Assembly: GCA_001801305.1 (NCBI GenBank)
Contig: MGXH01000061.1
Coordinates: 4,371 to 68,370 of the forward strand
Length of the DNA stretch: 64,000 nt
Source of the DNA: Gammaproteobacteria bacterium GWE2_42_36
GTDB lineage: Bacteria; Pseudomonadota; Gammaproteobacteria; UBA12402
Reading direction: 5' to 3'
Under the pieces are notes generated by a model. That model was given only the letters and a program-made list of their open reading frames with translations, was not told the DNA's origin and made no database searches. Positions 61,666 through 64,000 of the stretch are shown in pieces (within the stretch, counting starts at the first letter, position 1; each line of letters begins with the position of its first letter). A program made the position numbers and the translations under genes.

Positions 61666-62955
61666 TCAATCGTCAATCCGCTTCATCACTTCTGCCACTG
61701 TCACAAATGAACCAAAAACAACGATTAAATCTGCTTCAGTCGTGTTTTGAAGCACTGTTTTTAACATCTCATCGACATTCTCACAAATTTGATAACGAAA
61801 CTCTCCCGCTTCTTCAAGCTTAGCTGCAAGAAATTCGGCCTCTGCGCCACGTGGCAGCGGGAGAGATATCAAATACCATCTCTCCACAAAGGGTATCGAT
61901 GCAGCAAACACACCTCGGATATTTTTATCTTTCTGCATGCCAATAATCGCATGAATACGACGTTCTGGATAAATCCGCCTCAAGTGATCAAAGAAATGTT
62001 CAGCCGCCGCGGGATTATGCGCCACATCCACAAGCATTTTTCGTCCTAAATAATCAATGGACTGAAATCGTCCCGGCAAAAAAACCTGCTTCAATCCTTT
62101 TCTGATTGCCTCAAAAAAAACAGGAAAAACAGATCGCAAACAAAGAATTCCCATTAGCGCAGCCGCTGCATTCGCTAAATCAATTGCAGGGATCGGTAAA
62201 TGTTCGAAACAATGATCGCCTGACTTAAAAGTCCATTCTTGTCCCGATGACTCATAAAAAAAGTTTTTCTCGAGACTATATACAGGTGACTCAAGGTTGT
62301 TAGCTATCTCCGACAAGGTTGACGGTGGATTTTTATCTCCACAAATAATAGGTTTATACGCACGCATAATACCGGCTTTTTCTCGTGCAATATCAGTTCT
62401 GGTATATCCCAACACGTCGCAATGATCCAAATCAATACTGGTTATAATTGCCAAATCCGTGTCAATCAAATTGACCACATCGGATCGACCTCCAATACCG
62501 GCTTCTAAAATAATTAAATCAAGATTCGCTCGCTTAAATAAAAAGAGCGCGGCTAAAAAAGAAAATTGAAAATAGTTGAGAGACAATGCCTGACGCGCCT
62601 CATCAATCGCATTAAATGCTTCACAGATCGCTTCATCACTTGCCATCTCTCCTTGCACGCGAATGCGCTCATTAAAATACAATAAATGAGGAGAAGTAAA
62701 CGCGCCGACACGAAGTTTGGCTTGCAAATAAATAGATTCCAACGCGGCGACACAAGATCCTTTGCCATTCGTTCCAGTCACTGTAATCACTGCCTCCGAG
62801 GAAGGCCAAAGATTTAATCGATCTATCACAGTACGAACAGAAGAAAAAGAATTTGGCACCGAACGAACAGTTTTTAAGGATTCCAAAAACATTAGCCATT
62901 CGGTCAAGGATTGAGGGCTGGAATTGCTTCGTGATGGATTTTTCATGATTGTCAT
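61666..62955 (-). CDS. folC: Bifunctional folylpolyglutamate synthase / dihydrofolate synthase (FolC); start assigned to MTIMKNP… rather than the upstream in-frame MCNC…
   Basis: Mur-ligase P-loop VTGTNGKGS about 60 aa from the start; ~430 aa. Confidence 0.8.
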   Translation of the reverse strand: MTIMKNPSRSNSSPQSLTEWLMFLESLKTVRSVPNSFSSVRTVIDRLNLWPSSEAVITVTGTNGKGSCVAALESIYLQAKLRVGAFTSPHLLYFNERIRVQGEMASDEAICEAFNAIDEARQALSLNYFQFSFLAALFLFKRANLDLIILEAGIGGRSDVVNLIDTDLAIITSIDLDHCDVLGYTRTDIAREKAGIMRAYKPIICGDKNPPSTLSEIANNLESPVYSLEKNFFYESSGQEWTFKSGDHCFEHLPIPAIDLANAAAALMGILCLRSVFPVFFEAIRKGLKQVFLPGRFQSIDYLGRKMLVDVAHNPAAAEHFFDHLRRIYPERRIHAIIGMQKDKNIRGVFAASIPFVERWYLISLPLPRGAEAEFLAAKLEEAGEFRYQICENVDEMLKTVLQNTTEADLIVVFGSFVTVAEVMKRIDD

Positions 62956-63125
62956 CCCGTGACCACGGCAATTTTCCCAAACAGAAACCAAGGGGTAAAT
63001 TGATCTACAATTGCACATGCGAGCGAAAAAGTATTATCTATTAAGCGAACAGTTCGGGGCGATTCTAAAAATGTCAGCCATTCGACCAACGATTGAGGGA
63101 AAAAATCGTTTCGTAATAAATATTT
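62952..63125 (-). pseudogene. folC: 5' remnant (~57 codons) of a second, divergent folC (…PQSLVEWLTFLESPRTVRLIDNTFSLACAIVDQFTPWFLFGKIAVVTG*). The ancestral ATG is apparently AAT here. It is truncated at the P-loop codons and directly abuts the intact folC start.
   Basis: Aligns at both protein and nucleotide level (roughly 70% nt identity) to the first 60 codons of the intact folC (PQSLTEWLMFLESL…AVITVTG). Confidence 0.65.
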
Positions 63126-63406
63126 ATTCTCTTCCTGAGCGCTAAAATTGTCTCCTTGTGGTTTAACTGGAGGGGATAAAGTAACAAGCAATAAAGTATG
63201 GAACAACAATGATATTATTTTAGATTGCAAGAATATTTTCAAATGGGTGCTCGCAATCTGAATCCTGCGGTCAAGCCGCGGGATGACGGCATACAAGACA
63301 TAAAATAATATCAACGATAATTTCAATCGTAGCCGCGCCCCTTCAAGAATGTCCAATATAAGCATCCATCGCGTAGCAATGAAAAATCCCTCAATCCTCA
63401 CTCCTA

Positions 63407-64000
63407 TTACGCCACGGGTTGTTCAAAAATCGCTTTTTGATGCGTCAATTTTGCGAGCAATAGCGCAATGCGTTCACGTAATTGTCTGCGATCAACAATC
63501 ATATCGATCGCACCATGTTCCAATAAAAACTCACTCTTCTGAAATCCTTCTGGCAAGGTCTGACGAATAGTTTGTTCAATCACGCGCGGCCCTGAAAATC
63601 CGATCAACGCTTTCGGTTCGGCCATAATGATATCGCCCAGCATCGCTAAACTGGCCGAAACACCACCCATGGTTGGATTGGTCAAAACCACCACATAAGG
63701 AATTTCCTTTTGGGCTAATTTCGCGAGCGCTGCACTTGTCTTTGCCATTTGAAATAAAGACAACAGGCCTTCTTGCATACGCGCGCCGCCTGAAGCCGTA
63801 AAACAAATCAGGGGGATGTTATTTTCTATCGCTATATTAACCGCTTGAACAAATTTCTCGCCCACAGCAGAACCCATCGATCCGCCGATAAACTGATATT
63901 CAAACGCACAAGCCACGACAGGAATCTTACATAAAAAACCCTGCATCGCAACCAGCGCTTCTTTTTCGCCGATTTTTTTCTGAGAATGCTGTAGTCGTTC
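63407..64000 (-). CDS. accD: Acetyl-CoA carboxylase carboxyltransferase beta subunit (AccD), C-terminal part; the gene continues beyond the window edge
   Basis: …[16 protein letters not shown]…[16 protein letters not shown]…; frame is open to position 64000. Confidence 0.85.

Follow-up and report, generated by a model that had tools for sequence, protein, structure and literature searches.

Between accD and folC, at the edge of a polysaccharide locus in the uncultured groundwater organism Gammaproteobacteria bacterium GWE2_42_36, lies a short, decayed copy of the 5′ end of folC (ψfolC′, hereafter the stub). The stretch analysed (the window) comprises 64,000 nucleotides (nt) of contig MGXH01000061.1, positions 4,371 to 68,370, and all genes of its accD-folC-wzb-wza-wzc region are on the minus strand. 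Four features make up the accD-folC border.

63407..64000, minus strand: 3′ part of accD (carboxyltransferase beta subunit), assigned by Pfam Carboxyl_trans; the gene exceeds the window end
62955..63137, minus strand: ψfolC′, decayed copy of folC codons 1-61, defined by four-way alignment and BLASTP (E=6e-13)
62952..62957, minus strand: junction GG[A]TGA, read directly from the sequence
61666..62955, minus strand: intact folC (dihydrofolate synthase / folylpolyglutamate synthase), 429 amino acids, assigned by NF008101, TIGR01499, Mur_ligase_M and Mur_ligase_C

The folC stub and its junction with the intact gene

The folC gene next to the stub is complete. Its product gives a full-length match to NF008101 with 390.1 bits (cutoff 360) that covers positions 11-415 of the 422 in the profile, matches TIGR01499 with 300.5 bits (cutoff 162.65), contains both the middle and the C-terminal Mur-ligase domains (PF08245 and PF02875), and retains an unbroken P-loop, VTGTNGKGS. 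The working start codon is the ATG at 62955 (MTIM...), as placed by a four-way MAFFT alignment of the stub, the intact 5′ end and the folC genes of the two nearest relatives, Gammaproteobacteria bacterium GWF2_41_13 (L001, also L012) and a Logan contig (L002). The accD gene ends with the TAA at 63409-63407, and its product shares 93% amino acid identity with that of L001.

The original prediction held that a folC-like fragment, homologous to the intact gene at both the protein and the nucleotide level, separates accD from folC, and this proved correct. BLASTP aligned the stub peptide with the neighbouring FolC at 23/53 identities without gaps (E=6e-13), and a tblastn search with FolC through all six frames of the 64-kb window returned only folC itself and the stub (E=3e-8). 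In the ungapped comparison with the intact 5′ end, 105 of 183 nt (57%) and 24 of 61 amino acids (39%) are identical; random 183-nt windows give 47.7±6.1 matching positions, which places the stub at z≈9. The similarity is thus highly significant on formal alignment, though weaker than the roughly 70% identity first claimed. That level is reached only over the first ~65 nt (74%), and identity falls to about 50% over codons 19-48 (the PQSL..VTG stretch). The stub was also put at 57 codons with an ancestral ATG now reading AAT, and both details had to be revised. The four-way alignment, ungapped over the first 11 codons, gives a length of 61 codons and identifies the dead start as the CAG at 63137-63135 (ATG→CAG); the AAT (63128-63126) is AAT in the relative as well and hence no mutated start codon.

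The 3′ end of the stub is exactly as predicted: the peptide finishes with ...AVVTG and runs into the start of the intact gene. The last codon, Gly61, is the GGA at 62957-62955, its final base is the A of the working ATG (62955-62953), and the stub frame stops at the overlapping TGA (62954-62952). In the alignment the stub homology ends at this GGA, and the homology of the intact gene with L001 begins at the ATG. The two copies therefore stand head to tail in the same orientation with no DNA between them, the geometry of a tandem duplication. Everything 5′ of the working folC ATG is stub, and the native upstream sequence is gone.

The stub breaks off at VTG, just before TNGKGS, and the P-loop and the catalytic domains are missing; it has no Pfam or NCBIfam match. 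Judged by its sequence, it cannot be an enzyme. Significant homology, truncation at codon 61 and loss of the start codon are all features of a pseudogene, although the frame is not disrupted, with no stops and no indels in 61 codons. The best database matches of the stub peptide are only the three FolCs of the clade. It shares 25/47 amino acids with FolC of the relative, compared with the 23/53 shared with its neighbour, and at the nucleotide level the counts are 93/144 against L001 folC and 85/144 against the neighbour. The stub is a real folC 5′ remnant at an illegitimate junction, old and fairly ordinary. The junction probably goes back to a single ancient illegitimate join, at the level of microhomology, which linked the Gly61 codon of one copy with the ATG of a second, complete folC (probability about 0.8). 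The description of the site as the scar of such a join, with a complete folC directly adjoining the truncated 5′ stub of the resident side, is thereby upheld.

The stub does not stem from faulty assembly: 8 independent contigs, taken from ENA, JGI and Logan assemblies, show the same arrangement, as does strain L011, which is 97.4% identical. All assemblies found for the species have the stub, and L001 and L002 lack it. That both copies open with a motif of a local repeat family (GGATTGAGGG / CCCTCAATCC) could suggest a shared dispersed repeat of the CCCTCAATCC type in place of gene homology; however, 48 more homologous codons follow, with FolC-specific residues (EWL.FLES..TVR...VTG). Together with z≈9, the in-window E=3e-8, best matches confined to the clade FolCs and recurrence in independent assemblies, this leaves chance similarity, a repeat-only origin or an assembly artefact with a negligible probability, and these explanations were rejected.

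Three lesser readings of the stub region were also dropped. One was a still older, third decayed start near 63217 (TTGCAAT...), whose alignment scored no higher than shuffled sequence (p=0.15). The GACAAT upstream of both copies was considered as a shared derived character and abandoned because the four-way alignment puts the junction at the ATG, so that GACAAT of the working copy is coding (ATG ACA ATC). A 1-nt deletion at the stub start, suggested by pairwise alignment, is unnecessary given the ungapped MAFFT alignment.

Searches for relatives of the clade returned few genomes. Among 5.8 billion proteins, the close FolCs comprise the species' own cluster, GWF2_41_13 (73% identical) and L002; all others are at most 49% identical. 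No further lineage with 73-100% FolC identity emerged from the protein search, from a search with the 149-codon reading frame described below or from genome and metagenome protein scans, and a clade-specific DNA pattern search returned only the GWF2_41_13 contig. As the original prediction had proposed to check, a single folC follows accD in the relative: the L001 order is accD, a spacer of ~250 nt, one folC, wzb and wza. L002 has a single folC followed by wzb-wza-wzc, and the 158 nt upstream of it are collinear with L001.

Decay and age of the stub

Identity between the stub and the intact 5′ end is nearly the same at the three codon positions (37, 34 and 34 of 61). At sites conserved in the three functional copies, stub-specific changes number 8/36, 13/39 and 10/25 by codon position, whereas the functional copies differ from one another in the ratio 12:6:19. 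The equal divergence at all three positions indicates that the stub is a relaxed pseudogene. About 31% of the functionally conserved sites have changed in it, corresponding to ~0.3-0.4 substitutions/site of neutral-type decay. The probability that neutral decay would leave the stub alone without a stop is 0.13.

This amount of change is comparable with the background divergence between the window and L001 at fourfold degenerate sites, which totals 0.43. The stub is therefore judged to be old, with an age comparable to the split from the nearest sequenced relative by either route considered below. Three-taxon counts attach it roughly halfway along the path from the working copy to L001. The event is an ancient one and no recent swap.

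Between the window and strain L011, the differences over 62788-63566 are 2/160 in accD, 14/275 in the non-folC part of the gap, 3/172 in the stub and 1/155 in the folC 5′ part. The stub has changed at a lower rate between these strains than the spacer next to it, with a Poisson probability of ~0.02 by our own estimate from small counts.

The stub has little significance beyond its lineage. It is of value as a clean, datable scar of an illegitimate join beside a capsule-type locus.

Routes to the junction and the boundary of the polysaccharide locus

The replacement of a resident folC by an incoming one was part of the original prediction, and for folC itself this part is still live: one-sided import of a related folC allele is slightly, and only tentatively, favoured over tandem duplication, which fits the anatomy of the site equally well. 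In an event resembling homology-facilitated illegitimate recombination (HFIR), a folC allele from a related lineage would have entered by homologous crossing-over on its downstream side, no further than wzb, and its other end would have joined illegitimately inside the resident folC. Such an import would have replaced resident codons 62-429 and stranded codons 1-61 beside accD. The divergence of the working folC is consistent with this course. At fourfold degenerate sites, folC differs from L001 by 0.55, uniformly along the gene, compared with 0.34-0.49 (pooled 0.43) for seven upstream genes and 0.455 for wzb. The difference between folC and the seven pooled genes has a Fisher p=0.011, which becomes ~0.06 in a t-test with the gene-to-gene spread. 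Synonymous divergence (dS, NG86 method) between the window and L001 is 1.20 for folC and 0.63-1.01 for the flanks, and amino acid identity is 73% for FolC (61666-62955 versus L001:10001-11260) and 81-94% for its neighbours. Normalised by two outgroups, the protein depth between the window and L001 is 0.38-0.40 for FolC and 0.15-0.19 for AccD; the window and L001 are equally distant from the outgroups, which argues against a lineage-specific acceleration of FolC. These values suggest that the history of the working folC is deeper than that of its flanks, by ~1.5-2x in divergence, a moderate and non-decisive signal. Import is also favoured by the greater closeness of the stub to L001 than to its neighbour (unique changes number 18 in the intact copy and 10 in L001) and by a neighbourhood that demonstrably recombines.

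Several observations weigh against import. With L002 as the outgroup the counts of unique changes become 15:15, and the 18:10 asymmetry is not significant. Measured against the seven reference genes, folC is an outlier by only ~2.3 standard deviations. Its normalised depth would likewise be raised if FolC had accelerated throughout the clade, and wzb is at background divergence, though with a wide confidence interval. No donor lineage turned up, only three lineages of the clade being present in the searched collections, and with just three taxa the topology of a tree carries no information on folC discordance. The alignment of the two window copies over 183 nt has no gaps, whereas each of them needs an indel of 15-36 nt against L001 and L002. 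This collinearity, set against the heptamer indels that separate both copies from the relatives, mildly supports the rival possibility, a real one, that slippage or unequal exchange copied folC codons 1-61 (183 bp) head to tail within the lineage, with no foreign DNA. The upstream copy would then have lost its start and decayed, and the downstream copy would have stayed continuous with the rest of folC; the trigger of the break may have been a palindromic repeat in the accD-folC gap. Such a duplication readily accommodates two adjoining copies in the same orientation with a 1-nt overlap, the same synteny as in the relatives, the background divergence of wzb, and the long palindrome at the accD-folC site of the relative (fold z=-10). 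It leaves unexplained, however, why folC has diverged 1.5-2x more deeply than accD and six other flanking genes, and why the neighbouring copy is not the closest match of the stub. Moreover, two 183-bp repeats in tandem that start out identical tend to collapse by homologous recombination, and it would take luck or selection for them to persist for long.

Known systems offer parallels to both routes. For HFIR, by natural transformation or conjugation, the first descriptions reportedly date from 2002 and concern Acinetobacter and Streptococcus pneumoniae. A summary of the HFIR mechanism is given in PMC3240628. The folC site resembles it in having one illegitimate junction with a 0-1 nt overlap beside an otherwise syntenic stretch, a resident gene truncated at that junction with a complete incoming copy next to it, and an adjoining polysaccharide cluster that recombines. 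It differs in that the event is ancient and the contrast in divergence across the junction (0.55 versus 0.43) no more than suggestive. Partial tandem duplications that leave a 3′-truncated upstream pseudogene share with it the same orientation, abutment, ungapped collinearity and decay of the functionless copy. Unlike in such duplications, the folC copies do not look like mutual closest relatives in the available counts, and the stub has stayed free of indels over ~0.3-0.4 substitutions/site, which is unusually long for bacterial junk DNA.

The original prediction went further and had folC arrive together with the polysaccharide genes that follow it, the first three of which are listed here.

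61146..61589, minus strand: wzb (low-molecular-weight phosphotyrosine phosphatase), assigned by Pfam LMWPc; first gene of the polysaccharide locus
60213-61139, minus strand: wza
57901-60165, minus strand: wzc

According to that account, a block of folC, wzb-wza-wzc and the rest replaced its resident counterpart, and folC is the anchor of a glycan cassette that is regularly exchanged. The position of the stub at the accD-proximal edge, the greater divergence of folC than of accD, and the high divergence of wza and wzc from the relatives (dS 1.4-2.1) are in line with it. Nevertheless, the comparative data contradict the account, which is very improbable. The order folC-wzb-wza-wzc is common to both relatives, wzb is at background (0.455), and the variability boundary does not coincide with folC. 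Between L001 and L002, dS is 0.16 for folC, 0.16 for wzb and 1.56 for wza, so that the jump falls between wzb and wza. Three independent assemblies of the species end exactly at 61164, in the 3′ end of wzb where it borders on wza, and the sole single-nucleotide difference in a fourth is at 61163. The contig ends and the jump from 0.16 to 1.56 together indicate a recombination boundary at wzb|wza. The conserved flank thus appears to extend through wzb, with the present-day exchange boundary one gene inward of folC. A matching 3′ folC remnant, which the original prediction proposed to look for at the other locus boundary, was not detected by tblastn and blastn anywhere in the window, neither in the 61 kb downstream as a whole nor at the far locus boundary near 23.2 kb. 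The drop in GC content is restricted to ~29-55 kb, and the stub is ancient, occurs in every assembly and is not polymorphic with serotype. Finding a stub at the edge of a locus is not in itself enough to place the cassette boundary there.

Gene remnants that flank O-antigen and capsule loci, those near galF/gnd in Enterobacteriaceae and dexB/aliA in pneumococci, have been read as traces of past cassette replacement. The folC stub is like them a truncated housekeeping-type gene bordering a polysaccharide locus that is long, variable and low in GC. It is unlike them in that the exchange boundary lies one gene inward, at wzb|wza, and in that the stub is found in every assembly of the species and is much older than strain-level variation.

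The polysaccharide locus is ~38 kb long and ends at ~23.2 kb. Its core (~29000-55000) has a GC content of 0.31-0.38, against 0.40-0.44 in the flanks, and the higher-GC flanks include wzb-wza-wzc and the first four biosynthesis genes. A GC dip such as this one at ~29-55 kb is what a variable core exchanged by horizontal transfer usually shows. Since both relatives have the folC-wzb-wza(-wzc) adjacency, it is ancestral to the clade. In distant gammaproteobacteria folC is followed by dedD-cvpA or other genes and not by wzb, indicating that the insertion of wzb-wza-wzc after folC is specific to the clade of the window. Two such distant relatives, L015 (L015:4106-6296) and L016 (L016:4082-6260), have FolCs that are 47-49% identical and an accD-folC gap of 1 nt; L016 retains the E. 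coli-like order truA-accD-folC-dedD(SPOR)-cvpA.

The reading frame and the repeats between accD and folC

The gap between accD and folC is spanned by one open reading frame (ORF) of 149 codons, ORF149, of which the stub forms the last third. Repeat elements lie within the gap and around folC.

62952..63401, minus strand: ORF149, spanning the whole accD-folC gap, with the folC stub as its last 61 codons (ORF reading)
63364..63404, minus strand: post-accD repeat arm GGAGTGAGGATTGAGGG + ATTTTTCATTGCTACGCGATGGAT, defined by GGATTGAGGG motif matches
63260..63290, minus strand: REP-like GC hairpin GCCGTCATCCCGCGG-CTTGA-CCGCAGGAT in the accD-folC gap
61661..61679, minus strand: repeat motif GGATTGACGATTGAGGGAA at the folC stop

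ORF149 starts with a GTG 5 nt past the stop codon of accD and ends in a TGA that overlaps the start codon of folC in the sequence ATGA (62955-62952). Its 92 non-folC codons are open in the stub frame in only 0.34% of 5000 dinucleotide shuffles (p=0.0034), and each of the other two frames of the region contains 11-12 stops. It is called as a gene of 137 or 149 residues in public assemblies. The protein search found no homologue of ORF149 outside the species, and it has no Pfam or NCBIfam match. L001 and L002 carry in the same place a 44-codon ORF that ends ATGTCATGA on the folC ATG.

An open frame whose stop overlaps the folC start has the geometry of a relay ORF. ORF149 may have been co-opted to hand ribosomes from accD over to folC, a doubtful proposal that is read from the sequence. 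The relay would have restored a hand-over lost when a palindromic element and the duplication separated accD from folC, the stub would stay on as the last third of ORF149, and selection would keep the frame open without regard to the peptide. Such frame-only selection would explain why the stub has decayed at every codon position and yet has acquired no stop or indel after ~0.3-0.4 substitutions/site. The 1-nt spacing of accD and folC in distant relatives also speaks for a relay. There are, however, points against it. The codon usage of the first 92 codons falls in the bottom 2% of real genes, with a GC content at third codon positions (GC3) of 0.45 versus 0.34, although this score is confounded by the absence of stops and is weak evidence only. 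The frame is not conserved with the 44-codon ORF of the relatives, the sister-strain differences (6 synonymous and 11 non-synonymous) are not distinguishable from neutral, and ORF149 has no convincing Shine-Dalgarno sequence or start context.

Alternatively, ORF149 could be a genuine new gene with a function of its own, composed of an intergenic part with two hydrophobic helices and a recycled FolC N-terminus. Its improbably open frame (first 92 codons, p=0.0034; stub part, P(no stop)=0.13), its integrity in the 97.4%-identical strain despite 17 substitutions, and its being called as a gene in all assemblies fit this idea. The lack of a homologue outside the species and of any Pfam or NCBIfam match, the atypical codon usage and GC3, and the 11 non-synonymous versus 6 synonymous strain differences do not, and the intergenic part evolves ~5x faster than the flanking genes (14/275 versus 3/315); a new gene is very unlikely.

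Translationally coupled ATGA genes provide the closest model for a relay: the TGA of ORF149 overlaps the folC ATG, distant relatives have a 1-nt accD-folC gap, and the 44-codon ORF of the relatives ends on the folC ATG. In contrast to such genes, neither the peptide nor the frame of ORF149 is conserved, and the coupling is deduced from the geometry and the improbability of the open frame. It is of specialist interest that a gene fragment may be kept only as an open frame relaying translation. With more genomes from the clade, the stub would be a natural test of how non-coding debris persists under 'frame-only' selection.

The palindromic element is best seen in the relatives. Their accD-folC spacer (L001:9770-10015, L002:1-215) is a palindrome of ~260 nt with the arms (AGGATTG)5 and (CTCAATC)4. 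As RNA, the L001 spacer folds with a minimum free energy of -126 kcal/mol against -73.6±5.2 for shuffles (z=-10.1), in the manner of a hairpin of the miniature inverted-repeat transposable element (MITE) or repetitive extragenic palindrome (REP) type. In the window the fold has eroded (z=-1.8), and the counterparts of the two arms are at 63364-63404 and 62905-62955. The post-accD arm is homologous to the (AGGATTG)5 arm of L001 and matches, in inverted orientation, the opening ~13 codons of the intact folC (27/35); within this match, the inverted repeat 63379-63393 / 62932-62946 is 93% complementary. In the relatives, the right palindrome arm encodes the folC start codon and a clade-specific N-terminal extension of FolC, so the beginning of an essential gene seems to derive from the repeat element. 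Such an element, a palindromic heptamer repeat that appears to have given folC a new start codon and N-terminus, is likewise of specialist interest. A test of co-evolution between the post-accD arm and the working-copy arm, intended to mark the resident copy, was uninformative because cross-species duplexes are as good or better (-56.5 versus -42.5 kcal/mol).

Rickettsia palindromic elements insert in-frame into genes. Prokaryotic MITE/REP palindromes insert next to or inside genes (PMC10969869). The folC region is similar in the ~260-nt palindromic spacer of the relative, with its heptamer arms and a right arm that encodes the new FolC N-terminus, and in an in-frame heptamer-containing insertion inside folC of one relative. 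It differs in that the motif occurs in the window at four sites only, around folC. The motif in question is GGATTGAGGG; all four of its sites in the 64-kb window surround folC, and L001 and L002 have extra sites.

Several smaller observations concern the same repeats. A perfect inverted repeat of 13 nt links TTCCCTCAATCGT of the stub (63089-63101) with ACGATTGAGGGAA in the folC stop region (61661-61673). The working-copy variant CCCTCAATCC matches the post-accD variant GGATTGAGGG instead, a crossed pairing. Scans for promoters and terminators gave counts not above shuffles, and Rfam had no match within 60-64 kb. A hairpin nearly identical to the REP-like one in the gap, CCGTCATCCCGCGGCGAAGACCGCGGGGATCC, follows folC in the relatives (L001:11278-11312, L002:1604-1636); its general form is GTCATCCCGCGG-N5/6-CCGCGGGAT, and it looks like a small dispersed repeat of the clade. 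In L002, folC (protein P0003, 475 amino acids) has at L002:540-680 an in-frame insertion of ~56 residues with the heptamer repeat (…PILNPQS…), which looks like a repeat-containing insertion inside coding sequence.

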